The position numbers and the translations under genes were made by a program. Of a DNA stretch of 64,000 nucleotides, positions 1,227 through 50,754 are shown one piece after another; positions within the stretch are counted from its first letter, which is position 1, and every line of letters begins with the position of its first letter. The stretch is from the NCBI GenBank assembly GCA_001819495.1, contig MHMW01000021.1:10706-74705 (forward strand), in the 5' to 3' direction. The notes beneath the pieces were generated by a model, which was not told where the DNA came from, did no database searches, and saw only the letters and a program-made list of their open reading frames with translations. The DNA comes from Candidatus Portnoybacteria bacterium RBG_19FT_COMBO_36_7 (lineage in GTDB: Bacteria > Patescibacteriota > Minisyncoccia > Portnoybacterales > GWB1-42-6).

Positions 1227-3401
1227 ATGGAAAATAACGGAAATAAAGCTTATAATCCCCGCGAAATCGAGCCTGAAATCTACAAATTATGGGAATATTC
1301 GGGTTATTTTAATCCCGACAATTTACCTGTTTCAAAAATTAAAAATTCAAAAATTAAAAATTTTTGCATTATAATGCCCCCTCCCAATGCCAACGAAGCC
1401 CTGCATATGGGCCACGCACTTGATTTTACTATCCAGGACGCGCTTATCCGTTTTAACCGAATGCAGGACAAAAAAACACTCTGGCTGCCTGGTGCCGACC
1501 ATGCCGGCTTTGAAACCCAGGTTGTTTTTGAGAAAAAACTTGAGAAAGAAGGTAAAAGCAGGTTCCAGTTTGAACGTAGCACTCTCTATAAAATGATCTG
1601 GGATTATGTCCAGCAGAACAAGCATATTATGGAAGAGCAGGCCAGGAGCTTAGGTGCTTCCTGCGACTGGTCAAGAGAAAAATTTACTCTTGACCCAAAA
1701 ATAGTGGAGATTGTCTATGATACTTTTAAAAAACTTTACGACGATAAACTTATCTATCGGGGCAAAAGAATAATCAATTGGTGCCCAAAACATCAGACTG
1801 GCTTGTCCGACCTGGAAGTCAAATACGAAGAACGGGAAGATAAGCTCTGGTATTTTAAATACCCCCTCTCCTCGGGTGAAGGATTTATAGTCGTGGCGAC
1901 GACCCGCCCCGAAACTATGCTTGGCGACACGGCTGTAGCTGTTAATCCGAAAGATAACCGCTACAAAAAATTGATCGACCAAAAAGTTAAACTGCCTCTG
2001 ACAAATAGAGAAATTCCGATCATTACCGACAGTGCGGTTGAGCTGGAATTTGGCACCGGCGCGGTCAAGGTAACGCCTGCGCATGATCCGGTTGACTTTG
2101 ATATCGCGGATAGACACAAACTGGAGTTCATCGAGGTCATCGGCAAAGACGGAAAAATGACCAACGAGGTGCCAGAAGCCTATCAAGGATTAAAGGTTGA
2201 TGATGCCCGCGCCAAGGTAGTGGTAGATCTAAACGCACTGGGCCTGATGGAAAAAGAAGAACCTTATAAACATTCTGTCGGCGCCTGCTATAAATGCGGC
2301 CGGACAATCGAGCCCTTAGCAATGGAGCAATGGTTCGTCAAAATAAAACCGCTGGCCGAAAAAGCAATTGAAGCGGTCAAAAAAGGCAAGACAAGGTTCG
2401 TCACAAAAAAGTACGAAAAGACATTTATGCACTGGATGAGGAATATCAAAGATTGGAATATTTCCCGCCAAATAGTCTGGGGCATCCGCATCCCGGCTTG
2501 GTATAAAAATGACCAGATTCATATCGGCAAAGAGCCCCCAAAAGAAGATGGCTGGGTTCAAGATACCGATGTTTTTGACACTTGGTTCTCTTCGGGCCAG
2601 TGGCCCTTCGTCACTTTGATGACCAGCGGCCAAAATGACTTAAAAGAATTTTATCCAACATCAGTAATGGTCACTGCCTGGGATATTTTATTTTTCTGGG
2701 TGGCACGCATGATAATGATGGGAATTTATTGCACAGGTAAAGAACCATTCAAACAAGTTTACATTCACGGACTCCTCAAAGACAAATACGGCAAAAAAAT
2801 GAGCAAATCAAAAGGCAATGTTATCAATCCTCTGGCAGTAGTAGAGCAGCGCGGAGCAGACGCCTTGCGCATGTCTCTCCTGTTTGGTTCTGAAGCTGAC
2901 AGTGATACTCCAATTTCTGAAGAAAAAATTATCGCCCAGCAGAGGTTTGCCAATAAGATCTGGAATGCTTCAAAGTTCGTGATGAATGCACTCGGGCCAG
3001 ACTACAAGCCAACCAAACCCGCCCGAGGCGCCCAGTCCGCCGACGGGTGGAGGTCCGCCATGGATGGATACACCAAAGAAGACAAATGGATATTGAAAGA
3101 ACTTGAAAAAGCGACTAAAAAGATCACGACAGATATCGAAAAATATAAATTCCACGAAGCGGCACAGGAAGCATATCACTTCTTCTGGCACAAGTTTTGC
3201 GACAAAACTATAGAAGATGTTAAAATAAGGATACAGAAAAATTCCAAAGACGCTGACGCTGGCAAACTCGTGGTTTGGACTGTTTTATATAATTCCCTGA
3301 AGCTTCTCCATCCTTTTATGCCCTTTGTCACTGAAGCTATCTATCAGAAGCTCCCCTCCCGGCCAAAAGAACTCTTGATGATTGAAAAATGGCCAAAATA
3401 A
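1227..3401 (+). CDS. valS: Valine--tRNA ligase, short form (724 aa). It lacks the long C-terminal coiled-coil domain
   Basis: PPPNANEALHMGHAL (HIGH region), LWLPGADHAGFETQ, CDWSREKFTLD, INWCPKHQTGLSDLEV, KMSKSKGN (KMSKS). Confidence 0.85.
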   Translation: MENNGNKAYNPREIEPEIYKLWEYSGYFNPDNLPVSKIKNSKIKNFCIIMPPPNANEALHMGHALDFTIQDALIRFNRMQDKKTLWLPGADHAGFETQVVFEKKLEKEGKSRFQFERSTLYKMIWDYVQQNKHIMEEQARSLGASCDWSREKFTLDPKIVEIVYDTFKKLYDDKLIYRGKRIINWCPKHQTGLSDLEVKYEEREDKLWYFKYPLSSGEGFIVVATTRPETMLGDTAVAVNPKDNRYKKLIDQKVKLPLTNREIPIITDSAVELEFGTGAVKVTPAHDPVDFDIADRHKLEFIEVIGKDGKMTNEVPEAYQGLKVDDARAKVVVDLNALGLMEKEEPYKHSVGACYKCGRTIEPLAMEQWFVKIKPLAEKAIEAVKKGKTRFVTKKYEKTFMHWMRNIKDWNISRQIVWGIRIPAWYKNDQIHIGKEPPKEDGWVQDTDVFDTWFSSGQWPFVTLMTSGQNDLKEFYPTSVMVTAWDILFFWVARMIMMGIYCTGKEPFKQVYIHGLLKDKYGKKMSKSKGNVINPLAVVEQRGADALRMSLLFGSEADSDTPISEEKIIAQQRFANKIWNASKFVMNALGPDYKPTKPARGAQSADGWRSAMDGYTKEDKWILKELEKATKKITTDIEKYKFHEAAQEAYHFFWHKFCDKTIEDVKIRIQKNSKDADAGKLVVWTVLYNSLKLLHPFMPFVTEAIYQKLPSRPKELLMIEKWPK

Positions 3402-3403
3402 TT

Positions 3404-3520
3404 CCCAATTACCAATAACCAATTCCCAATAAAATTTCTAATGTCCAAATGTCCAAAAATGCCCCACAAGGCGGGGCATGGATTGGAAATTGGAAATTGG
3501 AAATTGGAAATTTTACGTGA
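3404..3520. terminator. GC stem (gccccacaaggcggggc) embedded in a long imperfect inverted repeat of ccaat/attgg-type pentamer units. Probable bidirectional terminator or insulator between valS and the next gene
   Basis: ccaattaccaataaccaattcccaat ... gccccacaaggcggggc ... tggattggaaattggaaattggaaattggaaatt. The two flanks are imperfect reverse complements. Confidence 0.4.
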
Positions 3521-4296
3521 TTTATCTTCTCTACGCCATTTTCGGCCTCTTGCCCAGCGTTATCTGGCTTCTTTTTTATCTGCGAAAAGACAAACATCCT
3601 GAACCAAACAGAATGGTCGTCAAAATTTTTCTCTGGGGAATGCTGATGGGGCCGCTGGCCATTTTAGCTGAACTTTTCATAAAATGGCTGATGAACCCCG
3701 TAGATCTGGCAAATTTTATTGATATTTTGAGAACGAACGCAAAGGATAGCTATCTTTTTATCGGCATAGTTTTTGTTGCCCCGGTAGTTGAGGAAATCGT
3801 AAAATACGCGGTGGTTCACTTTGCCGTGCTTAAAAATCCTGATTTTGATGAACCGATTGATCTTATGCTCTATATGATTATCGCTGCTCTTGGCTTTGCG
3901 GCTATCGAAAATCTATTGCTTATTTTCCAAACTCCCCTGCCTGCTCTAGATAAAGTTATCACCCTGGCCGCGTTGCGATTCGTCTCGGCCACTTTTTTGC
4001 ATGCGTTAAGCTCCGGGCTTTTGGGATACTGGCTGGCCAAATCCATGCGTGACCCGGCCAAAAAAATCCAGTATCTGGCTCGAGGCTTTGGCCTTGCCAT
4101 TTTTTTCCATGCCAGTTACAATTATCTTACCTGGATCATTTCTGATAACCAGCCCTATGGTTCTGTTATTGCAATAGTTATGACCGTTCTTCTTCTTTCT
4201 TTCATGGCAGTCGCTGCATCTTATAATTTTTCGCTTTTGAAAAAAATGCATTCTGTCTGCAAAATCTGTAAGCCCCGTCCCAGCTTTTGGTCTTAA
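3478..4296 (+). CDS. Multi-pass membrane protein, PrsW-like intramembrane metalloprotease family (putative). The true start may be downstream, at MVVKIF
   Basis: About 7 hydrophobic helices. VVEEIVKYAVV (EExxK motif), FLHALSSG and FFHASYNY histidine motifs are typical of PrsW/CPBP-like proteases. Confidence 0.4.
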   Translation: MDWKLEIGNWKFYVIYLLYAIFGLLPSVIWLLFYLRKDKHPEPNRMVVKIFLWGMLMGPLAILAELFIKWLMNPVDLANFIDILRTNAKDSYLFIGIVFVAPVVEEIVKYAVVHFAVLKNPDFDEPIDLMLYMIIAALGFAAIENLLLIFQTPLPALDKVITLAALRFVSATFLHALSSGLLGYWLAKSMRDPAKKIQYLARGFGLAIFFHASYNYLTWIISDNQPYGSVIAIVMTVLLLSFMAVAASYNFSLLKKMHSVCKICKPRPSFWS

Positions 4297-4403
4297 ACAT
4301 TTCAACACCGTTATCTCTCTTGCGCGCTTTTTCAATAAGAGTTAAAATATAAAAAACATAAACAAATTCATAAGGCGGCACCCTCGCCGTCAATTAAATC
4401 AAT

Positions 4404-4892
4404 ATGGCAAAAAAACCTAATTTTCTTGAAAGATTAACGGGCGCGTCTTCGGACAACGATTCTATTGGGCCGCCAGAAATCAAATCCCGAGACAAACAAA
4501 TTGAAAAGCCAAAGGTCCATGAACCAATTGAGCCCGAAGGCGACGAGTGGCTTCCAGAATCAGAAGGCCAGCTGACCATTGATGTCTATCAGTCCCCTAA
4601 TCATATTATCATCAAATCCACCATTGCCGGAGTAAAGCCCGAAGATCTGGATATTACAATAACCAACGATATGGTTACGATCCGGGGCAAACGCGAGAAG
4701 GACGAAGAAATTCAGACTGACGATTATTACTATCAGGAATGTTACTGGGGCTCTTTTTCCCGGTCGGTCATTCTGCCCGTTGACGTTGAAGCAGATGCCG
4801 CCGAGGCCAGCCTTAAAAACGGAATTCTTACAATCAAACTGCCCAAGATTGAAAAAATAAAGACGAAAAAGATCAAAATCGCTACCGATTAA
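4404..4892 (+). CDS. Hsp20/alpha-crystallin family small heat-shock protein
   Basis: Alpha-crystallin domain: LTIDVYQSPNHIIIKSTIAGVKPEDLDITI ... SFSRSVILPVDVEADAAEASLKNGILTIKLPK. Confidence 0.8.
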   Translation: MAKKPNFLERLTGASSDNDSIGPPEIKSRDKQIEKPKVHEPIEPEGDEWLPESEGQLTIDVYQSPNHIIIKSTIAGVKPEDLDITITNDMVTIRGKREKDEEIQTDDYYYQECYWGSFSRSVILPVDVEADAAEASLKNGILTIKLPKIEKIKTKKIKIATD

Positions 4893-8367: not shown

Positions 8368-9087
8368 CTAATCTCTGTAAAAAATTTTCATCAGCGTCCA
8401 TAATGCCTTAACTGAAACAGAAACCATTTTCACGCTACTTTTACGCTCGTTATATCTTTGTTCAATCCATTGCATAGGCACCTCTTTGATGCGCAAACCC
8501 GCTCTTTTTGTTTGTGTCAGAAGCTCGCCATCAATAAAAAAGCCATTCTCCCTGCATCGCTCAATCATGATATCGGAGGCTTTTTTATTCATCGCTTTAA
8601 TGCCGCTTAAAGCATCTCTTACTTTCAGACCAAAAAAAATGTAAAGTATCTTAGCCAGACATATCGTTAATAGACGCCTGTGCCAAGGCCTTCTGCCCCC
8701 TATTCTTTTCCCGACTATCAAATCTGCTTCTCCATCTTCAAGCGGATTAAAAAAATTGATAATTCCCTCTGGCGGCAAAGGAATGTCAGAATCAACATAA
8801 AGATAAAATTTTGAGTTGATTTTTTTTATCGTTTCTCTTAAAGCATTGCCTTTTCCGGCCTGCGGGACATAGAAATAAGAAATCCTGCCGTTGCTTCTCT
8901 GGGCTATTTCTCGGCCAATTGTTTCGGTGGCGTCAGAAGAACAATTATCGGCTAAAATGATCCGCCAGGATTTTTTATCCCAACTGTCAAATACACCCAG
9001 CAACAAATCGACCGAATTTCGTAAAATTTTGGCATCGTTATAAAGCGGGATTATAATAACGTAGTCAATTGGACCGATTTTATCCAT
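8368..9087 (-). CDS. Family-2 glycosyltransferase (Dpm1/GtrB-like polyprenyl-phosphate sugar transferase)
   Basis: IIIPLYND ... ILADNCSSDATE ... YVDSDIPLPPEG (DxD-like motifs), with a C-terminal amphipathic segment. Confidence 0.65.
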   Translation of the reverse strand: MDKIGPIDYVIIIPLYNDAKILRNSVDLLLGVFDSWDKKSWRIILADNCSSDATETIGREIAQRSNGRISYFYVPQAGKGNALRETIKKINSKFYLYVDSDIPLPPEGIINFFNPLEDGEADLIVGKRIGGRRPWHRRLLTICLAKILYIFFGLKVRDALSGIKAMNKKASDIMIERCRENGFFIDGELLTQTKRAGLRIKEVPMQWIEQRYNERKSSVKMVSVSVKALWTLMKIFYRD

Positions 9088-9195: not shown

Positions 9196-9662
9196 ATAAT
9201 CTCTTTAAGCTGTCTCGGAGAGGGCTTTTTGGTTTACCTTTGTTAAATCCCGCAAAGCGGGAGCTGCAAAGCAGCTATTTAACAGGGTGACTACTCTCGT
9301 CAACCGACATTTTAGGTCTTGCCTGACCCACTCCGACCCAAGGTCGGAGCAATCGACACTACTTCCTCTTATATTAAAAAATATAAGAAAGGAGGTGATC
9401 CATCCACAGCTTCCGCTACGGATGCCTTGTTACGACTTCGTCCCTGTCACCGAGCCTACCTTGAAACCAATAAATTGGCGCTTCCGGTATTCCCGGCTTC
9501 CTTGACGTGACGGGCGGTGAGTACAAGACTTGAGAACGTATTCACCGCGCCATGGCTGATGCGCGATTACTAGCGATTCCGGCTTCATGAGGTCGGGTTG
9601 CAGACCTCAATCCGAACTGGGACCGGCTTTGATGGGATTAGCTCCATGTTACCATTTCGCTT

Positions 9663-9693
<31 letters not shown>

Positions 9694-10332
9694 AGCCCAG
9701 GTCATCAAAGGATCACGCTGATTTGACGTCATCCCCGCCTTCCTCCCCATTGTCTGAGGCAGTCTGCTGCGACACTTGTAACGCAGCATAAGGGTTGCGC
9801 TCGTTTCCTCACTTAAGAGAACAGCTCACGCCACGAGCTGACGACAACCGTGCAATACCTGACCCATCTGTCCTTGTGAGACATCGGCTGTTTCCAGCAG
9901 ACTTCAGATGGATGTCTAGACCTGGTAAGGTTCCTCGCTTGTCGTCGAATTGAACCACATGCTCCACCGCTTGTGCAAGTCCCCGTCTATTTCTTTGAGT
10001 TTTAGCCTTGCGGCCGTACTTCCCAGGCGGCAAACTTAACGCGTTAGCTTCGCCACCTGAAGGGTCGATACTTCAAATGGCTAGTTTGCATAGTTTAGGG
10101 CGTGGACTACAAGGGTATCTAATCCTTTTTGCTCCCCACGCTTTCGTCTCTCAGGGTCAGAGTAGCGCTAGCTGAATGCCTTCGCTTTTGGTGTTCCCTA
10201 CGATATCAACGGATTTCACCCCTACACCGTAGGTTCCATCAGCCTCTCGCACTCTCTAGTTTTGACGTTTCTTGCGCGGCGTTGGAGTTGAGCCCCAACA
10301 TTTAACACAAGACTATCAAAACCCCCTACAGA

Positions 10333-10363
<31 letters not shown>

Positions 10364-10454
10364 TGGGGTACTCGTCTTACCGCTCCTGCTGGCACGAGTT
10401 TAGGAACCCCTTATTCTTAGGGTACGCTCATTACGCTCCTCGCTTTCGCTCGTC

Positions 10455-10600
10455 GCTCAAATTAAAATTTTAAAGTTAAAAGTGTGAAATCATTGTATCG
10501 CTACGCAATGATTTATATATAATCATCCCGCGAAGCGGGGCACCTTAATTTTTAACTTTTCATTTTCCATTTTTAACTTAGCTCCGAACGTAAGTGAGGA
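10455..10600 (-). repeat. Insertion (~150 nt) in the V3 hairpin of 16S, built from the genome-wide AT-rich repeat family (aaagttaaaa / aatttttaac arms) around a GC palindrome
   Basis: Flanking 16S sequence aligns to E. coli ~430-500. The inserted segment is caaattaaaattttaaagttaaaagtgtgaaatc - core with cccgcgaagcgggg - ccttaatttttaacttttcattttccatttttaactt. The arms are inverted repeats. Confidence 0.5.
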
Positions 10601-10989
10601 GCGCATTGCTCCCCTATAAAAGAGTTTTACACCCCGAAGGGCTTCTTCACTCACGCGGCGTCGCTCGATCACGCTTTCGCGCATTGTCGAAGATTCTCGA
10701 CTGCAGCCTCCCGTAGGAGTCCGGACAGTTTCTCAGTTCCGATGTTGGGGGCCGACCTCTCAGTCCCCCTACCCGTCATCGCCTTGGTGGGCCGTTACCT
10801 CACCAACTAGCTGATAGGACGCAGGCCTCTCCTGAAGCAACCCTTGCGGGTCTTTAAATGAGAATGACATAAGTCCCCTCATTACTATCTTGTATTAGTC
10901 CCGATTTCTCGGGATTATTCAAAACTTCAGGGTAAGTTACCTACGCGTTACTAACCCGTTTGCCACTACCGCTCGTGCTTCGCTATCGC

Positions 10990-11045
10990 TCATCACTCGC
11001 TCAAATTAAAAGTTTAAATTTTCATTTTTAATTTTTAACTTAAGT
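10990..11045 (-). repeat. Insertion (~55 nt) in the V1 hairpin of 16S from the same AT-rich repeat family
   Basis: caaattaaaagtttaaattttcatttttaatttttaactt lies between CAAGTCGAACG...GCACAAAC and the GAGCGGTAGTGGCAAACGGGT region. Confidence 0.4.
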
Positions 11046-11726
11046 TTGTGCTGAACATAGTGAAGCACAAACGATCGTTCGACTTGCATGCCCGTATCCA
11101 CGCCGCCAGCGTTCATCCTGAGCTAGAATCAAACTCTCATTGTAAATGTTAGAACTAAAATTGCTGAATCGATCTTCGACCGTCCCACAAAATGCGGGGC
11201 AGTAAAGCGACTCAACACCTCTAGAATCCAACAAGTTTTTTCGAGACAACTTAAAAAGATTATCTCATCTCGCCGAAGCTCCGAATGGAGCATAGGCGGA
11301 TTAGCTCAAAAAAAATCTGGTTTATCCCGTTACATCCGCCAAAAAGACGGAAGTATTTATTACATCCCTTATAGTAGGATGCAATGGGATTTATTTAACC
11401 TTACTTTTTGTCTGTATTTTGTTGTTAAAGTTCAATCAAGTTTATCCATTTATACCCTCTTTCGCCCTGCAGGCTACGGACGGGTTATTCTCTTACGAGA
11501 ATAAAAAATACAACTAGTCAGACCTCTTAACTAATATTTAATTAAGAACCCCTCAAGTTGTATTTTCTAACTAACAAACTGATAACTGACAAACTGATTT
11601 TTTTTAATGGGTTCTTCTACATAGGCGTATTTTTCCTTTCCGCCCCGCAACTGCAGGGCTCTATGCAATGTCTATTTTACTCCTCTCAGTTAGCTTGTCA
11701 AGTGCTTAAATTTTACTTATCAAAAA

Positions 11727-12011
11727 CTACGATTTTTTATTATTTCTTTTATATTTTATATAGATAATTACGACTGCAATTCCAAAAATTAATGGGACTA
11801 AAAATAGAATATCAATCATACAACTACTCGAGCAATAGCCCCAAAAACCGTATGAATACATTTCTATAAACAACAATATTATGAAAACAACTAAACCAGA
11901 TAATAATCCAAATAGAATTCCAATTAAATTTTTCATTATATAGAGTACGTCTATTACAATGCCTTTGCCACATATTCTGTCATTTCTGCCAAGCGACACG
12001 CATAACCCCAT
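11727..12011 (-). CDS. Small hydrophobic protein (2 TM helices). The probable true start is at the internal MKNLIGILFG; the listed N-terminus is an out-of-frame read of a gap 3'-end remnant
   Basis: Hydrophobic segments GILFGLLSGLVVFIILLF and ILFLVPLIFGIAVVIIYI. The first 17 codons overlap the gap-fragment copy. Confidence 0.3.
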   Translation of the reverse strand: MGLCVSLGRNDRICGKGIVIDVLYIMKNLIGILFGLLSGLVVFIILLFIEMYSYGFWGYCSSSCMIDILFLVPLIFGIAVVIIYIKYKRNNKKS

Positions 12012-12030
12012 TCATTATCATACCAAGCCA
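11954..12030 (-). other. Degenerate duplicate (copy C) of the gap gene 3' end, encoding LAWYDNEWGYACRLAEMTEYVAKAL*
   Basis: Reverse complement ttggcttggtatgataatgaatggggttatgcgtgtcgcttggcagaaatg... matches the real gap C-terminus (WYDNEWGYACRLAEMTDFVANSF*) at protein level, with many synonymous differences. Confidence 0.55.
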
Positions 12031-12037
12031 AAATATA

Positions 12038-12331
12038 TTATTTATGCCGCACGCCGACTTTCTTTTCCAAAACATCAACACGTTTTTGTAATTCAACCAG
12101 CTCAAAACGATACGCGACGTTATGTAATCGCAACATAATTGCTTCGTGCTCACGCGCATTCGTTTCTCCTATGCTCTTTATTTCTTTTTTCAATCCTTTC
12201 TCTATTCCTTCAATTTTCTCTCCCGTTTCATCAAAACCGTTTTTAACCATAACGGCCAAATCATTCATTGTAATTTTCTTATTCGCTTTTTTCATGCCTT
12301 TATTATATTTATTGTCAAATTTTTGAGACAT
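12038..12331 (-). CDS. Hypothetical coiled-coil protein (~97 aa). Its start codon lies inside gap-fragment copy B
   Basis: MSQKFDNKYNKGMKKANKK ... AIMLRLHNVAYRFELVELQKRVDVLEKKV. No recognisable family. Confidence 0.35.
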   Translation of the reverse strand: MSQKFDNKYNKGMKKANKKITMNDLAVMVKNGFDETGEKIEGIEKGLKKEIKSIGETNAREHEAIMLRLHNVAYRFELVELQKRVDVLEKKVGVRHK

Positions 12332-12380
12332 ACTCCGCCATTTCAGCCAGCCGACACGCGTAGCCCACATTCGTATCGCT
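12315..12380 (-). other. Degenerate duplicate (copy B) of the gap 3' end, encoding ...DTNVGYACRLAEMAEYVSKI*
   Basis: ggctacgcgtgtcggctggctgaaatggcggagtatgtctcaaaaatttga; GYACRLAEM is conserved with different codons. It is preceded by two hairpins (gagcacat..atgtgctc; caagaaacc..ggtttcttg). Confidence 0.5.
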
Positions 12381-12535
12381 CCTCACGGCAGAGCTCCCAA
12401 GAAACCATCGGTTTCTTGCGCTCCCGAGCACATAAAACGTCATGTGCTCGGTCGCTGATTTCCTCCGCGGGGAAACACCCAGTTTCCTCATCCCCCTTCT
12501 GATGAATGGGGCCCGGCTGAAAGGACTTAAATTTA

Positions 12536-13546
12536 TTAGAAAGAATTAGCCACAAAGTCGGTCATCTCAGCTAATCTACACGCATAACCCCACTCATTAT
12601 CATACCAGGCCAAGACCTTGACCAAGGTTTCATCCATCACCATCGTGTAATTTGCGTCAACGATGGAAGAATAGGTATTGCCTTTGTAATCTATAGAAAC
12701 CAGAGGTGCGTCTTCGATGCCCAGAATACCATCCAGTTCCTTTGTCTGAGACATTTTTTTGAATGTCATATTTATTTCTTCAGCCGAGGTCGGGGTTTTG
12801 ACAACGCAGACAAAATCGGTAATCGAAACGACCGGTGTCGGCACTCTTAGCGAAATTCCATCCAGTTTTCCCTCAAGCTCGGGTATTGTTTTTGTGACGG
12901 CAGTAGCCGCGCCGGTGGTTGTCGGAATAATGGAAAGTGCGGCGGCACGGGCTCTTCGCAGATCCTTATGCGGCAAATCCAGAAGGCGCTGGTCGTTGGT
13001 ATAGCTGTGAGCAGTGGTCATAAAACCGTGCAAAATCTTGAATTTATCGTTCAAAACCTTGACCACCGGGGCCAGGCAATTGGTGGTACAAGATGCCATT
13101 GATATAATATCGTCTTTTTCTGAATCGTACTTTTCTTCGTTCACGCCGAGAACATATGTCTGGATTTCCCTGCTTTTTGTCGGCGCGGAAATTATCACTT
13201 TTTTGGCGCCGGCCTCAAGATGTTTTTTGGCACCTTCATATTCTGTAAAAACCCCAGAACATTCAAGCACGATATCAACGCCCATTTCTTTCCAGGGCAA
13301 GCGAGCGGGCTCTTTTTCTGCCAGTATTTTAATTTTTTTGCCGCCAATTTCCAATCCCCCGTCTTTTCCTTTAACGATTTTATCATAAACCCCATACATG
13401 GAATCATACTTTAACAAATGAGCTAAAGTTGGCGCATCGGTCAAGTCATTGATAGCCACAATTTCCAATCCAGGAAAATGGCTTAAAATTCGCTTTAATG
13501 TTGGACGCCCTATTCTCCCAAATCCATTTATAGCTATTTTGGTCAT
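12536..13546 (-). CDS. gap: Type I glyceraldehyde-3-phosphate dehydrogenase
   Basis: MTKIAINGFGRIGR, ASCTTNCLAP, WYDNEWGY. Full-length, 336 aa. Confidence 0.9.
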   Translation of the reverse strand: MTKIAINGFGRIGRPTLKRILSHFPGLEIVAINDLTDAPTLAHLLKYDSMYGVYDKIVKGKDGGLEIGGKKIKILAEKEPARLPWKEMGVDIVLECSGVFTEYEGAKKHLEAGAKKVIISAPTKSREIQTYVLGVNEEKYDSEKDDIISMASCTTNCLAPVVKVLNDKFKILHGFMTTAHSYTNDQRLLDLPHKDLRRARAAALSIIPTTTGAATAVTKTIPELEGKLDGISLRVPTPVVSITDFVCVVKTPTSAEEINMTFKKMSQTKELDGILGIEDAPLVSIDYKGNTYSSIVDANYTMVMDETLVKVLAWYDNEWGYACRLAEMTDFVANSF

Positions 13547-13659: not shown

Positions 13660-13893
13660 TTAACACTCTAGTTTTAGCAATTGACAGATTTTTTCCTTGT
13701 CAAAACCAATGACAATTTCTCCGTCAATATCCGAAACCGGCACCCCCATCTGCCCAGATTTTTCTATCATTTCTTCCGCTGCTTTGCTGTCGCTGCTCAC
13801 GTCAATATCATTAAATTCAATCCCTTTTTCTTTCAAAAAAGCTTTAAGAGTATGACAATAAGGACACGTTGGTGTTGAATAAATTTTGATCAT
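13660..13893 (-). CDS. Glutaredoxin-like (NrdH/YruB-type) thioredoxin-fold protein
   Basis: MIKIYSTPTCPYCHTLKAFLKEKGIEFNDIDV ... GVPV..IDGEIVIGFD. CPYC active site. Confidence 0.65.
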   Translation of the reverse strand: MIKIYSTPTCPYCHTLKAFLKEKGIEFNDIDVSSDSKAAEEMIEKSGQMGVPVSDIDGEIVIGFDKEKICQLLKLEC

Positions 13894-17474: not shown

Positions 17475-18259
17475 TTTTTTATAATTTTATTTTTTGGTAT
17501 TACCGGTGGCGACGGGTACATATCGTCCAGCATACCAAATCTCTGCATAATCAAATCTATTTCCTGCTGCGAAAATCCGTAAACTTCTTTTAATTTATTA
17601 TTGAAATTATTGATGGCAGCGCCCTTAAGCGGGCCTCGGCAGCCGTCGCACGGATACGCAGAAGAAGGGCAGGGCGCGCCGCAGCCGCCCAAAATCATGG
17701 GCCCGAGGCATGGCTCGCCTTTTTGCAGAAGACATTCGTTTCGTTTCAGTTGGCATTCATAGCAGACCGGCCTTTGCGGAATTTTTGGAATAACGCCGGC
17801 TATCAACTCCTTTGCCGCCCACAAAAATTCTTCTTTGTTGATGGGACAGCCCGGAATTTCCAAATCCACTTTAACGTAATATCTGACCGGCCTGATATCC
17901 GGATTGGCAATGCCTTCAAAGTTTTTATAAACATAGCGCAGGCGCTGTTCTTTGTTCTGGTAATTTTTAAGCTCGGCGATACCGCCCAAACAAGCACAGG
18001 CACCAATCGTTACAAGAAGCTTCGTTCGCGCGCGCAGATCCTTGACCCTGGCCACATTCTGAGAGGTAATCGGTGTTCCTTCGACAAAAACCACATCGTA
18101 ATTTTCCGGCTCTGCCCGATCTTCTATCAGCGCAAAATCACCTATTTTTATCTTTTCGGTCAGCTCCAGCAATCTCTCTCCCAAATCTAAAATCGCCACC
18201 TGGCAGCCTTCGCAGCAGGTCAAAGAAACAATCGCGATACTCGGCTTTTTGTTAGACAT
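17471..18259 (-). CDS. [NiFe]-hydrogenase small (delta) subunit with C-terminal Fe-S cysteine clusters
   Basis: IAIVSLTCCEGCQVAILD ... GACACLGG ... CYECQLKRNECLLQKGEPCLGP..GGCGAPCPSSAYPCDGC. Confidence 0.75.
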   Translation of the reverse strand: MSNKKPSIAIVSLTCCEGCQVAILDLGERLLELTEKIKIGDFALIEDRAEPENYDVVFVEGTPITSQNVARVKDLRARTKLLVTIGACACLGGIAELKNYQNKEQRLRYVYKNFEGIANPDIRPVRYYVKVDLEIPGCPINKEEFLWAAKELIAGVIPKIPQRPVCYECQLKRNECLLQKGEPCLGPMILGGCGAPCPSSAYPCDGCRGPLKGAAINNFNNKLKEVYGFSQQEIDLIMQRFGMLDDMYPSPPVIPKNKIIKK

Positions 18260-19034
18260 ATAAGGAATCTAAACTATTTTTTGTGTACTTATACAGATTC
18301 GTGATGTTCTCTTCGTTTAAAATCTGAATGGCATAATTCCAATGAAACGAAATCCAATCCCCCACTTCAACATTTGGCAACATTGTTTTATCCCAATTAA
18401 TTTCTTTTTCTTTCATGCTTCCAAACTTTATTTTCTTTCTCCCGATTAATGGGTTATATTCAACAATAATTTTTAACTTTTCATTTTTAAATTTTAACTT
18501 TTTAACCCTCCCCCAGCCAACCCGGCAGATATCTTTTAGATCCGTCCTGCCTGCAAAATCAATGCTGCCGGTTACCGCCCCCAGAACCAGAACATGAAAA
18601 CTGTGGTGCGGTTTGGAAGAAACTGGAATTGCATCAGATTTTTCTTTCGCGGCTTTTCTTGATAATAAACCGGGGCCAGAAAATCTTTTAACAATCAATT
18701 CGCGCAAATCATTAAAAGTTACCTTTTCCAATAACTCATTGCCGAGCCAATAAGCTTCAATTACTTTTTTGTTCAAAGACCCTGTTTTAATTCTGTTTTT
18801 CTTGGCAATCAATTCGTAATAAGGATAGGCTGCCTGAAATCTTTTTAGGGCCGGGATTATATCGGGTATGCCCAATTTCCCCCTGATAAATTCTCTTAAG
18901 TTTTTCTGGTCTTCCGACAGCCCGCAAAGACCCATCTCATTTGGAATCAAGCCATATAGCGCCGCGATTTTAGGCCCTGACATTGATTTTTTCTCCCAGC
19001 AGTTTAATTTTTTCCAATATAAAACGGTACCCAA
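18252..19034 (-). CDS. Hypothetical protein with a C-terminal HypC/HupF-like domain. The alternative start MSGPKIAALYG at 18983 gives a shorter overlap with the upstream gene
   Basis: C-terminal DICRVGWGRV...VGDWISFHWNYAIQIL resembles HypC MC(L/I)(A/G)(I/V)PG...VGDWVLVHVGFAI. The N-terminal ~185 aa have no recognisable family. An in-frame AT-rich repeat insertion (KKLKFKNEKLK) is at 18440-18500. Confidence 0.4.
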   Translation of the reverse strand: MGTVLYWKKLNCWEKKSMSGPKIAALYGLIPNEMGLCGLSEDQKNLREFIRGKLGIPDIIPALKRFQAAYPYYELIAKKNRIKTGSLNKKVIEAYWLGNELLEKVTFNDLRELIVKRFSGPGLLSRKAAKEKSDAIPVSSKPHHSFHVLVLGAVTGSIDFAGRTDLKDICRVGWGRVKKLKFKNEKLKIIVEYNPLIGRKKIKFGSMKEKEINWDKTMLPNVEVGDWISFHWNYAIQILNEENITNLYKYTKNSLDSLYV

Positions 19035-19881: not shown

Positions 19882-19990
19882 ACCAGGTAGTGAAAATTCG
19901 ACTTGTTATTGATAGATTATCAATAGCTTAGTCTTTTAATAAAATTACAGATGCCATATAGTAAAATCCGCATTATTTTTTATCCTGCTT
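19873..19990. repeat. Miniature inverted-repeat element, family B. The 21-bp terminal inverted repeats GCCAGGTAGTGAAAATTCGAC / GTCGAATTTCTACTACCTGGC enclose a core with the palindrome ttgatagattatcaa
   Basis: accaggtagtgaaaattcgac ... ggtcgaatttctactacctggc. Other copies are at 32903-32992, 47968-48045 and 48128-48192. Confidence 0.55.
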
Positions 19991-20231
19991 CGCGGGACGG
20001 TCGAATTTCTACTACCTGGCATGTTTTTTTCTTCGCACTTTTAAATAATTTATTAATTTCTTGCGCCTGTTTTTTGCTGATCTTCTGCACTATCACATTA
20101 TTTTGGGTCAGAACCCAGTCGCCTTTTTTGACAGAAATTATGGCGCCGACCTCCTGCGGCCCTTTTTGCGATTTCACCGTCGCAACGCCTTTTTTTAATC
20201 CGATAACTTGTTTTGGAATTGTCAGACACAT
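19980..20231 (-). CDS. hypC: Hydrogenase assembly chaperone HypC/HupF
   Basis: MCLTIPKQVIGL ... GDWVLTQNNVIVQKI; about 83 aa. Confidence 0.7.
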   Translation of the reverse strand: MCLTIPKQVIGLKKGVATVKSQKGPQEVGAIISVKKGDWVLTQNNVIVQKISKKQAQEINKLFKSAKKKTCQVVEIRPSREAG

Positions 20232-20249
20232 ATTCACTGTCGTTCAATT

Positions 20250-20320
20250 TAAAAAATGAAAATGAAAATGAAAATGTAAAAAAGTCATCCAGTTTTTAGT
20301 TTTTAAATTTTAATTTTTAA
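20250..20320. repeat. AT-rich short-period repeat block (aaaatg x4, then ttttaaatttt units)
   Basis: aaaatgaaaatgaaaatgaaaatgtaaaaaagtcatccagtttttagtttttaaattttaatttttaaatt. Confidence 0.4.
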
Positions 20321-20321
20321 A

Positions 20322-21185
20322 TTAAATTGCTCCCTGCACATTTTTTATCTGGTCATATCTGAACACCGGGCCCTGCTTGCAAACATAATGGCTTCCTATC
20401 CCGCAATGCTGGCAGACTCCGACTCCGCAGTGCATCCGCCGTTCAAACGAAAGATAAATATCTTCGTCAGCAAATCCGTATTTTTTCAATTTCTCCAAAA
20501 CGGCTTTATACATCACCGGCGGCCCACAGACAAATGCTCTGGCATCGGCAACAACAGAAACAACCTCAAATAACTTTGTAACCAAGCCAACGCACCCCTT
20601 CCAGTCTTCACAAACTTTATCTATGCTTAATTGAAGATTGACGCCGTCTTTCTGCCAAGATTCGTATTCATTGCGAAATAACATTTCCGAAGGATGCTTG
20701 GCGCCGTAAAATATCTGAATCTTGGCGTCTTTACCTAAAAATTCATTCTTGCCCAAAATCAAAGTCCTTAAAGGTATTAAGCCCAGTCCCCCGACAACTA
20801 TTAATAAATTCTTTTTTTCTTCATTTTTAACTTTAAACTTTGAACTTTGAACTTGAGCGCCAGCAATGGGCCAGCCGATGCCAAAAGGTCCTCTGATGCC
20901 GATTTTATCCCCCACTTTCAAAATATGCATTCTATTGGTCAGTTTCCCTATCGCTCTTATGCAAAGTTCTAAATTTTTTCCTGGCTTGTTGCAGGGCGCA
21001 AAGGGCGCTTCGCCAAACCCAGGCAAAGACAGCATAATGAATTGGCCTGGATAAATTCTGGCATCTTCATCAAATCTTAATTGAAAATGCATCTTGTCAA
21101 AGCCCAATTCAAACAGTTTGATGCCCGGCACATGGTCGGAAATCTTCAGAATTTTTGCCGTTTTGGTCTCGTAAAGATTAAACAT
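20322..21185 (-). CDS. Hydrogenase gamma subunit / AsrB-like FAD-NAD(P)-binding oxidoreductase with a C-terminal [2Fe-2S] cluster
   Basis: FNR-like fold motifs (GPFG, LLIVVGGLGLIPL) and C-terminal RRMHCGVGVCQHCGIG. It carries an in-frame repeat insertion QVQSSKFKVKNEEKK at 20815-20850. Confidence 0.75.
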   Translation of the reverse strand: MFNLYETKTAKILKISDHVPGIKLFELGFDKMHFQLRFDEDARIYPGQFIMLSLPGFGEAPFAPCNKPGKNLELCIRAIGKLTNRMHILKVGDKIGIRGPFGIGWPIAGAQVQSSKFKVKNEEKKNLLIVVGGLGLIPLRTLILGKNEFLGKDAKIQIFYGAKHPSEMLFRNEYESWQKDGVNLQLSIDKVCEDWKGCVGLVTKLFEVVSVVADARAFVCGPPVMYKAVLEKLKKYGFADEDIYLSFERRMHCGVGVCQHCGIGSHYVCKQGPVFRYDQIKNVQGAI

Positions 21186-29767: not shown

Positions 29768-30328
29768 TTATCTTTTTACCAGTTTGCGCTTTGCGTTAAA
29801 ATAAGTTACTAAATGTTTTCTCTTGTTCTTGGTGATGTATAAAGCGAAGTAAATAACCGCCAAAACACAAAAATTTATAGCCAAAATATAATTATTGTCT
29901 CCCCAGTTAATGGAATCAATACTAAAAGAAGACAGAGGATATAGAAATGGTGTAGCGAAATATTTGACGCTGTGAAAAGGAATATCAACTAAAATATGAA
30001 TGCCCCAGGCAGCCAGCGGCCACCATGGTTTTTTCAGGATCAGCCAAACAGCGATAAAAGCGATGGCAAAAAAAACAAGACTATGGCTAAAAGAATAAAG
30101 AGTCGGAATTATTTCTGGTCCCACCGGATTCAAATGTACCCTCGTGCTGTCAACGAAAGAAATACCCTTGAATATGGAAATTACGACATAAATGCCGTTT
30201 GAAAAAAGATCCGGCGCCACGGAAAAAATTATCGGCCACCAGATTTTTTTCTCTTTTCTATAAATTAAGCCTGTCCAGAGGCTGTGAGAAAAAATATCCA
30301 CAATATTAATGTAAAATTTAAAATGCAA
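29768..30328 (-). CDS. Hypothetical polytopic membrane protein inserted between the ABC permease and ATPase genes
   Basis: 5-6 hydrophobic helices; no recognisable motifs. Confidence 0.45.
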   Translation of the reverse strand: MHFKFYINIVDIFSHSLWTGLIYRKEKKIWWPIIFSVAPDLFSNGIYVVISIFKGISFVDSTRVHLNPVGPEIIPTLYSFSHSLVFFAIAFIAVWLILKKPWWPLAAWGIHILVDIPFHSVKYFATPFLYPLSSFSIDSINWGDNNYILAINFCVLAVIYFALYITKNKRKHLVTYFNAKRKLVKR

Positions 30329-30440
30329 AAATTAAAATGACAGATCAAAATTAAAAATTAGCTAATGCTAAAATCATTTTAAATTTTGCCCATTTTGCAT
30401 TTTACATTGTCGTTTTTAATTTTGATATTTGATTCTTGAA

Positions 30441-32902: not shown

Positions 32903-32992
32903 ACCTTGCCCGGTAGTGAAATTTCGGCATATTTTTTGAATTTAGCCCCGCCAGGCGGGGCCAGCCGAAATTCTACTACCGGGCTTGACATT
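32903..32992. repeat. Family-B inverted-repeat element, divergent copy (cccggtagtgaaatttcggc ... ccgaaattctactaccgggc), with core palindrome ccccgccaggcgggg
   Basis: See 19873-19990. Confidence 0.5.
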
Positions 32993-35110: not shown

Positions 35111-35443
35111 TTATGCCTGTAAGAAGCTTGCCACCAATTCCCAGATTCCAAAGGCCAATATCGCAACGCCAACACCCACCAAGCCGTAAATGAAAGCTCT
35201 TTTAGCTTTTCCGATTTTTTCCTCATCTCCCGCAGCAGTCATATAAAGAAATGCGGCATAAAGTATTACGAAAATACCTACTATAAAGATAATCGCAGCA
35301 AACCATGTTAAAATGGTATTTAACAAATCTAGAATTCCCCCTCTGGTCAAAGTAACACTCGGTAACGTGCCTGTCTGAGCCAAAGCAACTGCCGGCAGAA
35401 TTTGAGCTGCCAAAATCGCTCCCAGATATTTAATTTTTCTCAT
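35111..35443 (-). CDS. TrbC/VirB2-like pilin paralog 1 (signal peptide plus two TM helices)
   Basis: Signal peptide MRKIKYLGAILAAQILPAVALAQ; conserved LYAAFLYMTAAGDEEKIGKAKRAFIYGLVGVGVAI. Confidence 0.5.
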   Translation of the reverse strand: MRKIKYLGAILAAQILPAVALAQTGTLPSVTLTRGGILDLLNTILTWFAAIIFIVGIFVILYAAFLYMTAAGDEEKIGKAKRAFIYGLVGVGVAILAFGIWELVASFLQA

Positions 35444-35522
35444 TTTCTATCTCACCTCCTTTCAAATAAAAATTTTAATACTAATATTTATCAATTGGTA
35501 AAATTGCGATGTTTTTTTATCG

Positions 35523-35864
35523 TCAAGTCAGCAAGCTCTCAACCGCGTCCCAAATTCCATAAGCAAGCATGGCGACAATAATACCGACAATACCATAAAT
35601 AAAGGTTTTTTTAGCTTTCTCAATTCTGCTGTCGTCCCCTCCTGATGTCATGTATAAAAATGCGGCGTAAAGAATACAGGCAATACCTAGTATAAAAATA
35701 ATTTGGGCAAACCATGTTTTAATCTGATCAAATAACTCAACAAGTCTATCTGCCGTTAAATCAATCTGCGGCGGCTCATTGCCTTGGGCTGAAGCAATCA
35801 CGGGCAGCATTAGAATCGTTATGACAGAAATTATTAATAAATATCTTAAAATTTTTTTCTTCAT
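35523..35864 (-). CDS. TrbC/VirB2-like pilin paralog 2
   Basis: LYAAFLYMTSGGDDSRIEKAKKTFIYGIVGIIVAM. Confidence 0.5.
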   Translation of the reverse strand: MKKKILRYLLIISVITILMLPVIASAQGNEPPQIDLTADRLVELFDQIKTWFAQIIFILGIACILYAAFLYMTSGGDDSRIEKAKKTFIYGIVGIIVAMLAYGIWDAVESLLT

Positions 35865-35899
35865 ATGTTTATTGTTTCCTTCTTATTATTTATTATTTT

Positions 35900-36313
35900 T
35901 TAGTTTACCTCTAAAATACTTTTAATTAAAGTGATGAAACCGGCGCCAATCACAATTATCGCCACTCCGACAATCGTATAAGTGATGGCTTTTTTGGCTT
36001 TTTTAATCTTTTCTTCATCGCCGCCGGAAGTCAAAAAGAGAAATCCGGCGTATAAAACCATAATGGCTGCCAAAGGAACCATAATTTTATAAAACCATTC
36101 GGCTATCTTTTTGACTAAACCCTCAAAAGAATCAGTGTTTATGGGATTAGGAATTTCATATTTTCCCGTGCTACCTTGCTGCGCTAAAATAGGCTGCATA
36201 ATTAGTGCGCAGCCAAGTAGAGATAGAAATAATATTATAAAAATTTTTATCGATTTATTCAAATTCATAAAAATTAAATTTTTAATTTTTATCCGCTGCA
36301 TGTAAACTTCCAC
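35900..36313 (-). CDS. TrbC/VirB2-like pilin paralog 3
   Basis: LYAGFLFLTSGGDEEKIKKAKKAITYTIVGVAIIV. Confidence 0.5.
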   Translation of the reverse strand: MEVYMQRIKIKNLIFMNLNKSIKIFIILFLSLLGCALIMQPILAQQGSTGKYEIPNPINTDSFEGLVKKIAEWFYKIMVPLAAIMVLYAGFLFLTSGGDEEKIKKAKKAITYTIVGVAIIVIGAGFITLIKSILEVN

Positions 36314-36768
36314 CAGCTCTGGGGATTAAAGTCCCCGACGCTTTTGCCGATAACCTGAATGATGCTGTTGACAATCAGCCATGAAGCAAAAACAAAAATC
36401 AAGCCGATTACAACATTAATAAATATCTTTTTTGCCTGGGTAACCCTTTCCTCGGATCCGCCCGAAGTAAGAAAAATTGCTCCGGCAAAAACAATCAGAA
36501 GCCCGGCCACCGGCGGCGCCAGTCTGAAGGCAATAAAAGCGAAAATGTTTACGACAAGCGAGAAAAAAGCGCAAAGGTCGCATCCCTTATCGCCACATAC
36601 CGGCACAATCCGACAATTGGTGGTTAATTTAGTCATTACATCTTTGCATTCCGGCGTCTGGGCGTTTGCTAAAGAAGGATATAAAAATAATGAAAATCCG
36701 ATGATCAATAACAATGGCAATATTATAATAATTTTTTTCTTCATTAAGGTCTGCCTCATGAATTTCAA
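36289..36768 (-). CDS. TrbC/VirB2-like pilin paralog 4 with an extra Cys-rich insertion (7 Cys). The probable start is MKKKIIIIL at 36744
   Basis: VFAGAIFLTSGGSEERVTQAKKIFINVVIGLIFV plus TPECKDVMTKLTTNCRIVPVCGDKGCDLCAF. Confidence 0.45.
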   Translation of the reverse strand: MKFMRQTLMKKKIIIILPLLLIIGFSLFLYPSLANAQTPECKDVMTKLTTNCRIVPVCGDKGCDLCAFFSLVVNIFAFIAFRLAPPVAGLLIVFAGAIFLTSGGSEERVTQAKKIFINVVIGLIFVFASWLIVNSIIQVIGKSVGDFNPQSWWKFTCSG

Positions 36769-47068: not shown

Positions 47069-47976
47069 AATTCATAGCCAAAAAAGAAAACGTTGGCCGG
47101 CGGCTCGATAAACTTATTGCCGGGTATTGGCCGCAATATTCGCGCGCCTATATTCAAAAACAGGTCAAAGGCGGCGCGGTTCTGGTCAACGGCCAGATAA
47201 AAAAATCTAGTTATTTATTGAAAGAAAACGACGAAATTGAGGCAAATATTTTACCACTTCCTGAAATTTCTCTTGAGCCTGACCAAACAATTGAACTAAA
47301 AATTATTTATGAGGACGATGACGTGATAGTGATTGATAAGCCTGCCGGTTTAATTGTTCATCCAAGCGCCACCCAGAAAAGCGGCACGCTTGTGAACGGC
47401 TTGCTCGCCCACTATCCCCTGCTCAAAGGCGTCGGAGAGGACCCAGTCAGACCAGGCATTGTCCATCGCCTTGATAAAGACACTTCTGGCCTGATGATTG
47501 TCTCTAAAAACAACGAATCGTTTGGATTCTTAAAAGACCAGTTCAAGAACAAAAAGGTTGAAAAAAAATATCTGGTTTTGGTGGCTGGCCGGCCGAAAGA
47601 ATCATCCGGCAAAATTAAAACTTTCATCAGCCGCAGCAAATCAGATCCGACCAGACAAAAAATTTCACAGCACGGAGCAAAAGAAGCAATCACTTTTTAC
47701 AAAACCATACGCGAATTTCGTAATTTTACTTTAATTGAGGCCGTTCCAAAAACCGGGCGCATGCATCAGATAAGAGTGCAGCTAGCTTGGCTGGGCAATC
47801 CAGTGACCTGCGACAATAAATACGGGCTAAAAAAGCGCGCCTGCCCCGAAGGCCTGACCAGGCAATTTCTGCACGCGGCAAAGCTGACAGTAGTCTTGCC
47901 CGACGGTCAAAAGAAATCTTTCATCAGCCATCTGCCGCCTGATCTCGATATAATATTAGCTAGCCTTGCCAGGTAG
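47065..47976 (+). CDS. RluA-family 23S rRNA pseudouridine synthase (RluD/RluC-like) with an S4 domain
   Basis: RLDKLIAG (S4), VIVIDKPAGLIVHP, HRLDKDTSGLMIV (catalytic Asp). Confidence 0.85.
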   Translation: MKFIAKKENVGRRLDKLIAGYWPQYSRAYIQKQVKGGAVLVNGQIKKSSYLLKENDEIEANILPLPEISLEPDQTIELKIIYEDDDVIVIDKPAGLIVHPSATQKSGTLVNGLLAHYPLLKGVGEDPVRPGIVHRLDKDTSGLMIVSKNNESFGFLKDQFKNKKVEKKYLVLVAGRPKESSGKIKTFISRSKSDPTRQKISQHGAKEAITFYKTIREFRNFTLIEAVPKTGRMHQIRVQLAWLGNPVTCDNKYGLKKRACPEGLTRQFLHAAKLTVVLPDGQKKSFISHLPPDLDIILASLAR

Positions 47977-48045
47977 TGAAAATTCGACATTTTTTTTGAT
48001 TTTTGATCGCCTTCGGCGATCAGTCGAATTTCTACTACCTGGCTT
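47968..48045. repeat. Family-B inverted-repeat element, copy 3 (core palindrome gatcgccttcggcgatc)
   Basis: gccaggtagtgaaaattcgac ... gtcgaatttctactacctggc. Confidence 0.55.
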
Positions 48046-48127
48046 GAAATAAAATGATATTTGTGCTAAAATTTCAAAGTTAATATAATTAAGACAGTAT
48101 TTCACCGAAAGACTGTTTTTATATACT

Positions 48128-48192
48128 TTGCCAGGTAGTGAAATTCGACTGCTGCCTGGCAACCATTTAATTTTAAATTGTCGAATTTCTAT
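48128..48192. repeat. Family-B inverted-repeat element, copy 4 (short core)
   Basis: gccaggtagtgaaattcgac tgctgcctggcaaccatttaattttaaattg tcgaatttctattacctagc. Confidence 0.5.
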
Positions 48193-48200
48193 TACCTAGC

Positions 48201-48587
48201 ATGAAAATGACAGAAGAACAACTGAAAAAAGATCTGCCGGAAATTAAGCCCGGCTATACCGTTATTGTCCACCAAAAAATTAAGGAAGGCGACAAAGAAA
48301 GAATCCAGCATTTTCAGGGACTGGTTATTGCTCAAAAACATGGCTCTGGAATAAACGCTACTTTTACCGTGCGCAAAATTTCCGCCGGCGTGGCGGTTGA
48401 ACGAATTTTCCCGCTTCATTCTCCAAACATCCAAAAAATTGAAGTAGTCAAAAAATCAAAAGTGCGGCGGGCCAAACTCTATTATCTTCGCGGCCGTTTT
48501 GGCAAACAGGCAAAGATGAAAAAGACAGAGGCGGTGGTGCCCGAAACCGTTTTGCCGGAGCAAACGCCTGACCAAACTGCTGAATAA
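48201..48587 (+). CDS. rplS: 50S ribosomal protein L19
   Basis: [34 protein letters not shown]...[21 protein letters not shown]. Confidence 0.9.
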
Positions 48588-49034: not shown

Positions 49035-49155
49035 AACTAAGTTAAAAGTTTAAAATTAAAAATGAAAAATTTAGGTATCGCTTCGCGATAAAATATAAAT
49101 TACACACGGAGCACATACCTTTATTTTTAACTTTTCACTTTTAATTTTTAACTAT
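49035..49155. repeat. AT-rich repeat element with inverted arms (ttaaaattaaaaatgaaaaatt / aacttttcacttttaattttt) around the palindrome tatcgcttcgcgata, between tRNA-Phe and tRNA-Gly
   Basis: Same arm motifs as the 16S V3 insertion and the 59150-59300 element. Confidence 0.5.
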
Positions 49156-49159
49156 TTCT

Positions 49160-50747: not shown

Positions 50748-50754
50748 TTAATTC

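Follow-up and report, generated by a model that had tools for sequence, protein, structure and literature searches.

The window, a 64 kb stretch of the genome of a Candidatus Portnoybacteria bacterium (candidate phyla radiation (CPR), Parcubacteria type), contains a complete bacterial small-subunit rRNA gene on the minus strand at positions 9388-11144. The gene is 1757 nt long and was identified with the Rfam model RF00177 (1381 bits). Model positions 1-1533 were all matched, showing that the gene is otherwise undamaged and that, as an earlier note on this sequence had stated, both 16S ends are intact. Two insertions were found in it, one at the tip of helix 6 (h6, variable region V1) and one at the tip of helix 17 (h17, variable region V3). 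Both are paralogous copies of a dispersed, non-coding, AT-rich palindromic repeat, further copies of which lie in intergenic spacers of the same window.

Relatives for comparison were gathered by a lineage-specific 16S signature, which gave 20 genome loci and 9 metagenome loci; the syntenic loci were found via the neighbouring GAPDH gene. The nearest named genome is the metagenome-assembled genome (MAG) of Candidatus Portnoybacteria L006 (JACQXN010000027), with about 93% 16S identity, and a metagenome locus, L025, shares 98%. In the residue-level model alignment, 2 consensus positions of the h6 loop correspond to 86 nt in the window (approximately 10978-11063) and 11 consensus positions of h17 to 166 nt. 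Compared with insertion-free relatives, the V3 insert occupies exactly 10434-10604 on the minus strand (171 nt), as delimited by the model alignment, the empty relatives, folding, and an nhmmer match of the arms (E 3e-8). The entire h6 hairpin with the second copy spans 10968-11075, also on the minus strand (108 nt), versus approximately 20 nt in L025 (GGGCTGTC-GCAA-GACAGCT); its limits were set by the model alignment, folding, and alignment with L006, L025, L016, and L028. The earlier note had reported extra sequence in V1 and V3, which is present; however, its sizes (~150 nt for V3 and ~55 nt for V1) and spans are limited to the AT-rich cores, the GC-rich stems at the base being left out.

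At the V3 site, the filled sequence CAAT[171 nt]TAATGAG is opposed to the empty sequence CAATTTTTGAG. The h17 tip of the window reads GGGGAGCAAT-[171 nt]-TAAT-GAGCGTACC, whereas the tips in L025, L006, L016, and L027 are cleanly empty (GGGGAGCAAT-TTTT-GAGYGTACC). At the base of the element is a GC-rich stem; its arms are made of TTAAAAA-like heptamers and enclose a small, variable centre. In the V3 copy (RNA sense), the basal stem is formed by 10582-10604 and 10434-10454, and the arms of AT-rich heptamer repeats by 10542-10581 and approximately 10455-10494. The centre includes the GC palindrome ccccgcttcgcggg, which the earlier note had mentioned and which was located at 10527-10540. The V1 copy is devoid of a 67-nt centre seen in L006. 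The sequence cgctc..cgctcaaatt, previously noticed ahead of both insertion points, is real but belongs to the 3' basal stem of the insert and is not a target: the GAGCGA repeats (RNA sense) constitute the GC-rich 3' basal stems and are missing from the empty sites of relatives.

Folding in the context of h6 and h17, a check that had been suggested for the inserts, yielded long hairpins continuing the host helices via complementary termini. The minimum energies were -47.3 kcal/mol for the V1 region (z -6.5) and -70.9 kcal/mol for the V3 region (z -6.2), and none of the shuffled sequences folded as well in either case. Roughly 45 and 65 base pairs were predicted for the 108-nt and ~171-nt hairpins, respectively, and the V1 copy of L006 folds alike (z -7.8). 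No intron or ribozyme family was detected in 10400-11100 either at the Rfam gathering threshold or in a permissive scan with E values up to 1; the latter returned sub-threshold plant and animal microRNA-precursor models only, which are generic long hairpins. Neither insert contains an open reading frame (ORF), both being too short (171 and ~90 nt). A group I or group II intron, a ribozyme, and a homing-endonuclease carrier were ruled out in the absence of a catalytic core and an ORF, in line with the earlier view that the inserts are neither introns nor endonuclease carriers.

An assembly artefact, in which repeats were mis-joined into the 16S contig, should be considered for an uncultured source organism, the more so as repeat families can produce chimeric joins. 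However, the 16S sequence is in register on both sides of both inserts, each insert has its own unique complementary GC-rich basal stems, and the V1 element recurs at an identical position in the independent assembly of L006 (JACQXN010000027). The probability of such an artefact is close to negligible.

The V1 and V3 inserts align with each other at 27 of 30 nt in the 5' arm (TAAGTTAAAAAT..AAAATGAAAA) and at 34 of 42 nt in the 3' arm (TTTTAATTTGAGCGA..GAGCGA.AGCGA), with the similarity continuing into the GC-rich stems at the base. The arm motif AAGTTAAAAATTAAAAATGAAAA occurred 10 times in 64 kb with up to 3 mismatches, versus 0.00 occurrences expected from dinucleotide shuffles. Since the arms are low-complexity heptamer repeats, shuffle and centre-only controls were run. 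The best match of the V3 insert outside the 16S rRNA gene reached 76.8 bits, compared with 26.0 ± 2.6 (maximum of 34) for 100 dinucleotide shuffles, and that of the V1 insert reached 38.3 bits versus 24.3 ± 2.4 for shuffles. The V3 insert was aligned to a palindrome at 49037-49153 over 120 nt with 74% identity (E 4e-16). When the non-repetitive parts of the two centres were compared alone, the score was 15 versus 6.8 ± 1.45, a value reached by 1 of 2000 shuffles. The proposal that the inserts are built from the arms of a dispersed non-coding repeat was confirmed by both the motif counts and the bit scores.

Ordinary growth of the variable regions in place, through replication slippage of heptamers (compensatory slippage), would reduce the intergenic likeness to convergence of AT-rich, low-complexity sequence. 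In its favour, the arms are built of tandem TTAAAAA-like heptamers, and the h6 hairpin of relative L034 is made of ATAGCAA heptamers. On the other hand, the non-repetitive V3 centre shares homology with that of the 49-kb copy, the whole-insert score lies ~19 standard deviations above the shuffles, homology also links the GC-rich basal stems of the two inserts, and relatives have clean empty sites without intermediates. In-place slippage was judged very improbable.

Copies of the repeat family were recorded in the 64 kb window and in a few loci of relatives; the intergenic ones are listed without strand. The full-length intergenic copy (49035-49157), with two arms and a centre containing the CGCTTCGCG hairpin, lies in the spacer between the tRNA-Phe and tRNA-Gly genes and was recognised by its alignment to V3 (hairpin z -5.4). 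A second intergenic palindrome at 59151-59323, upstream of nusA, was found by repeat comparison; the family is represented by its left arm GCTCAAGTTAAAAATTAAAAGTG, and its centre is different and GC-rich. Of the two intergenic regions that the earlier note had likened in architecture to the V3 insert, the one at 49035-49155 holds over the 120-nt alignment, whereas 59150-59300 has only one arm in common with the V3 insert (86% over 29 nt) and a different centre. A short AT-rich palindrome detected by the arm motif (20246-20330) occupies the spacer after a hydrogenase gamma-like gene, where relatives L031 and L034 carry other AT-rich palindromes. Repeat comparison also revealed a related sub-family with arms AAAATTAAAATGACAGATCAAAATTAAAAAT, represented by an intergenic AT-rich palindrome at 30307-30440 and by another at 50748-50884, between the ymdB-like and RNase Y genes. 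The AT-rich repeat family is clade-wide because a sub-family copy is present in the syntenic spacer of relative L031. A search of other CPR loci with a hidden Markov model (HMM) of the arm retrieved only the L006 V1 copy, an in-frame arm in the gamma gene of L035, and a weak match in L004 (E 0.002), which is probably due to chance. Viral contigs scanned for the arm pattern gave 0 matches.

Two solo arms are located in frame in protein-coding genes on the minus strand. One of them (18463-18505), supported by nhmmer (E 1e-5), Pfam, and translation, lies in a DUF6390 gene (18252-19034) and encodes VKKLKFKNEKLKI. The other (20817-20859), found by the arm motif and nhmmer, encodes SSKFKVKNEE in the linker of an FNR-like hydrogenase gamma gene (20322-21185). 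These half-copies occupy hypervariable linker positions, where relatives differ by indels; no full-length element was found in a protein gene among the window ORFs. Two relatives have, at the linker sites of the window's AT-rich arms, an in-frame GC-rich palindrome that codes for ...IPAKAGIQV...RVKHGMT...: L034 in its hydrogenase gamma-like gene (2605-3471) and L035 in its DUF6390 gene (3927-4712).

A second palindromic family, unrelated to the AT-rich one, was observed at 19883-20026, 32909-32990, 47969-48049, and 48131-48206, all four copies being intergenic. Its arms GCCAGGTAGTGAAAATTCGAC / GTCGAATTTCTACTACCTGGC lie 20-100 nt apart, and the enclosed sequence often includes a small GC hairpin.

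The occupancy of the two helix tips was compared among relatives. In L025 (98% 16S identity), both V1 and V3 are empty, and the same holds for L016/L028 (89%). In L031/L032 (96%), V3 is empty, and V1 holds an element of ~300 nt that has terminal inverted repeats and contains a small GIY-YIG ORF. L006 (93%) carries in V1 the same AT-rich element as the window, with 67 additional nt in its centre, and its V3 is empty. In L034 (about 90%), a third kind of insert was found at the h6 tip (13695-13804), namely a 110-nt hairpin of ATAGCAA / AGCTATA heptamers; its V3 is not covered, as the locus ends before it. L035 (86-92%) has a GIY-YIG element in both V1 and V3. The GIY-YIG element is ~300 nt long with the termini GCACCTTCTAGATTT...AAGTTTGGAAGGTGC and was located at 13722-14030 in L031/L032 and at 12437-12745 and 13112-13412 in L035. 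In L031/L032, an extra 668-nt insert was also noted further downstream, at window-16S position 1024.

Occupancy is all-or-none and does not track 16S similarity. The earlier note had proposed a comparison with the closest relatives; in these, the loops were either short and empty or held inserted elements of quite another kind, and no V1 or V3 of the same length with unrelated sequence was seen among them. Because the tips are either occupied or represented by short empty loops or different elements in relatives, gradual in-place growth is disfavoured here as well. Within one small clade, the tips of h6 and h17 have served repeatedly as insertion sites, with at least three unrelated hairpin elements present there, and a single element family has occupied both tips of one gene twice independently (in the window and, with the GIY-YIG element, in L035). 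The window's inserts are probably recent selfish insertions, since close relatives do not have them.

The GIY-YIG elements raise the question of whether the window hairpins derive from endonuclease-driven elements, as degenerate remnants without an ORF, or travel with such elements as passengers, their presence in two loops resulting from homing. Homologous ~300-nt GIY-YIG elements sit in V1 of L031/L032 and L035, and in V3 of L035 too; the V3 junction of L035 is identical to that of the window (CAAT | insert | AATGAG), and cycles of ORF loss have been described for CPR rRNA insertions (PMC11270868). Nevertheless, direct comparison revealed no sequence similarity between the window inserts and the GIY-YIG elements, and the window element has clear homologues outside rRNA genes, which are normally lacking for homing elements. 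A homing origin is accordingly highly unlikely, although a shade less so than slippage.

[quoted passage not shown] The rRNA gene is probably single-copy, and under such a selection filter only insertions at dispensable, solvent-exposed tips would survive. The repeat would be fixed solely at sites tolerating extra sequence, and the tips of h6 and h17, surface helices that are often truncated in CPR ribosomes, would be such sites. Absence of h6, h10, and h17, neighbouring helices at the exposed surface of the subunit, is frequent in the 16S rRNAs of CPR bacteria (Tsurumaki et al. 2022, PMC9297842); the insertion-free relatives in the comparison set do keep a minimal h6 and h17. Alternatively, site choice may reflect active targeting of hairpin tips or tip-to-tip copying. 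Spread between lineages would probably proceed through homologous recombination in the conserved flanking rDNA. The V1 element is common to the window and the 93% relative and is missing from the 98% and 96% relatives. Its window and L006 copies have 6 mismatches in 111 shared positions, with flanking 16S sequences being ~7-9% different; the basal stem differs at 2 of 79 positions, and the AT arms at 4 of 32 plus the 67-nt indel. This pattern fits lateral spread via rDNA recombination; ancestral presence followed by loss or replacement, together with constraint, would explain it too.

Among known mobile palindromes, MITEs share with the window family a short non-coding structure with terminal inverted repeats and multiple dispersed copies (counted here in 64 kb only). 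The Rickettsia palindromic elements (PMC10969869) are likewise small dispersed palindromes found in intergenic regions and in frame in protein genes at tolerant sites, the likeness being one of anatomy and location. That review of prokaryotic MITEs says nothing of insertions in rRNA (PMC10969869). The hairpin repeats of sponge mitochondria (PMC2800124) and Volvox mitochondria (PMC2670323) fill spacers, land in length-variable sites of rns and rnl, and occasionally enter protein genes. They differ from the window family in residing in organelle genomes, as opposed to a free bacterial chromosome, and in their unrelated sequences; the fate of the Volvox palindromes in the rRNA transcript was explicitly unknown to the authors (PMC2670323). 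The repetitive extragenic palindromes (REP) associated with a Y1 transposase (REP-associated tyrosine transposase, RAYT) are described as palindromes of 20-40 bp headed by GTAG or CGTC (PMC3733652). Assignment to REP/RAYT was rejected: the arms start with GCTCAAGTT or CTAAGTT, the elements are 100-170 nt long, and no Y1 transposase was found in the window. In the literature searched, no description of a bacterial 16S insertion representing a copy of a genome-wide hairpin repeat was found.

The inserts would be transcribed inside the pre-16S rRNA, folding locally as 108-nt and ~171-nt hairpins. RNase III would then cut them as in classical intervening sequences (IVSs), without re-ligation, and the result would be a fragmented yet functional 16S rRNA, its pieces clamped by the conserved GC-rich basal stems. 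Intervening sequences of the 16S rRNA occur in Helicobacter and Campylobacter. In the 23S rRNA, examples are known from helices 25 and 45 in Salmonella, Leptospira, and Coxiella, where RNase III excises them without re-ligating the fragments (PMC4990558). In bacterial IVSs, as in the window inserts, complementary termini pair into an extended stem-loop that stands in place of a surface helix's small loop; they are sporadic in close relatives, have no intron core, and are compatible with a single-copy rRNA gene (PMC4990558). Unlike them, the window inserts belong to a repeat family also found outside rRNA genes and are represented by two paralogous copies within one 16S rRNA gene; their excision is a prediction. 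We infer excision because the anatomy and the sporadic distribution match those of bacterial IVSs, and we rate RNase III cleavage of the inserts as somewhat better than an even chance.

The CPR rRNA 'insertion sequences' (Brown et al. 2015; Tsurumaki et al. 2024, PMC11270868) resemble the window inserts in their lineage and in being part of the frequent rRNA insertion seen there. The window inserts fall into the residual class of PMC11270868, which is short (<200 bp) and has no intron model and no ORF. The threshold of at least 100 nt relative to E. coli given there may leave out the V1 copy, with its 86-nt surplus relative to the bacterial model. The short ORF-less insertions are treated in that paper as uncharacterised, with an RNase III intervening-sequence fate suggested for them (Tsurumaki et al. 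2024, PMC11270868). As far as the main text of PMC11270868 deals with CPR insertions, it makes no mention of repeats or palindromes.

The earlier note had concluded that the inserts are likely retained in the mature rRNA as expansion segments since they are a dispersed non-coding repeat and not introns; this does not follow, as the lack of intron features does not imply retention. Considered on its own evidence, the persistence of both hairpins in mature 16S rRNA, where they would form bacterial expansion segments re-extending h6 and h17 from the foot of the 30S subunit, is a possible but less probable outcome. The tip of h6 in E. coli tolerates inserted aptamer hairpins. According to the model alignment and folds, the inserts extend their host helices coaxially at solvent-exposed tips (PMC9297842), and the GC-rich base of the V1 copy is nearly invariant between the window and the 93% relative. 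Like rRNA expansion segments (eukaryotic and those of prokaryotic 5S rRNAs, PMC7812874), they are helix-tip extensions at the ribosome surface with an intact core, and the retained prokaryotic 5S segments reported there provide a precedent. However, expansion segments are retained and lineage-conserved, whereas the window inserts are all-or-none among near relatives and incongruent with phylogeny. No stable lineage-conserved helix extension was found, the 98% and 96% relatives having neither insert and others carrying different elements. A conserved function is therefore not needed to explain the inserts. In addition, the distal part is labile (the 67-nt indel), and long near-perfect double-stranded RNA is a natural RNase III substrate, with the known bacterial helix-tip hairpin inserts being excised (PMC4990558). 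CPR rRNA insertions are also said to be removed from transcripts (PMC11270868, citing Brown et al. 2015). A conserved base combined with a labile AT-rich distal part fits a clamping stub with a disposable tip, and it fits a retained expansion segment too.

A more far-reaching version, in which the repeat family actively colonises structural tips in Parcubacteria, its copies being kept in the mature 16S rRNA to re-grow the h6 and h17 lost in CPR and adding lysine-rich linkers to proteins, is regarded as speculative and rather doubtful. If it were true, these copies would be bacterial expansion segments derived from a mobile repeat, with selfish hairpin DNA directly remodelling the surface of the bacterial ribosome.

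Taken together, the data make it fairly probable that the inserts are paralogous selfish hairpin repeats at the h6 and h17 tips that are cut by RNase III. Several points weigh against this interpretation. The V3 site shows no target-site duplication and no direct repeat when the filled and empty sequences are compared, TTTT being replaced by TAAT, and membership in the MITEs fails there. The Pfam scan of the 60 window ORFs revealed no transposase, RAYT, endonuclease, or RNase III; as far as these 60 ORFs go, the lack of a cognate transposase is a further difference from MITEs, and genes for RNase Y and nusA are present. The census of copies is based on 64 kb and a few loci of relatives, not on a genome, and the arms are of low complexity, so that convergence may account for weak arm 'copies' like those at 1331-1369 and 20246-20330. 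Excision is deduced from precedent, and the strong conservation of the V1 basal stem at 93% 16S identity could equally mean a retained functional part of the ribosome. Separately from these points, co-folding of the 16S leader and trailer, in which an RNase III processing stem was sought, gave no clear long stem.

With these results, one of the short ORF-less insertions, a common uncharacterised class in CPR rRNA genes, gains a concrete origin in a dispersed palindromic repeat that is not an intron, and the choice between a fragmented 16S rRNA and a bacterial expansion segment becomes a directly testable question. The patchy, phylogeny-incongruent V1 element calls for caution in using V1-V3 for fine phylogeny in this group. 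Amplicon lengths and surveys relying on primers are distorted by such inserts together with the altered 515 primer site. In the window, the '515' universal primer site of the 16S rRNA gene (approximately 10375-10396) reads GTGCCAGCAGGAGCGGTAAGAC in place of GTGCCAGCAGCCGCGGTAATAC. The altered 22-mer was matched exactly in 20 loci among the GTDB species-representative genomes, mostly of CPR, and a longer pattern including it matched 9 metagenome contigs.

The 16S rRNA gene stands without linked 23S and 5S rRNA genes, no large-subunit rRNA being detected by Rfam in the 64 kb. On its 3' side, a GT2 glycosyltransferase gene (8368-9087), an unannotated ORF, and a tRNA-Leu gene were found. Between the GAPDH gene (12536-13546) and the 16S rRNA gene, two short remnants (11957-12034 and 12324-12377) resemble the C-terminal 18-26 residues of GAPDH, which suggests a tandem duplication of the 3' end of the gene. 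Four small tandem genes with type IV secretion system (T4SS) pilin / TrbC-like domains are located at 35111-36768. Inverted GC-rich repeats of 48 nt (TTTTCCTCCCCTCCTCAGATGAGGAGGGGCTGGGGGTGGTG...) at 55142-55189 and 55599-55646 flank a gene for a DUF559 (Vsr-like endonuclease) protein at 55253-55630, possibly forming a small mobile cassette.

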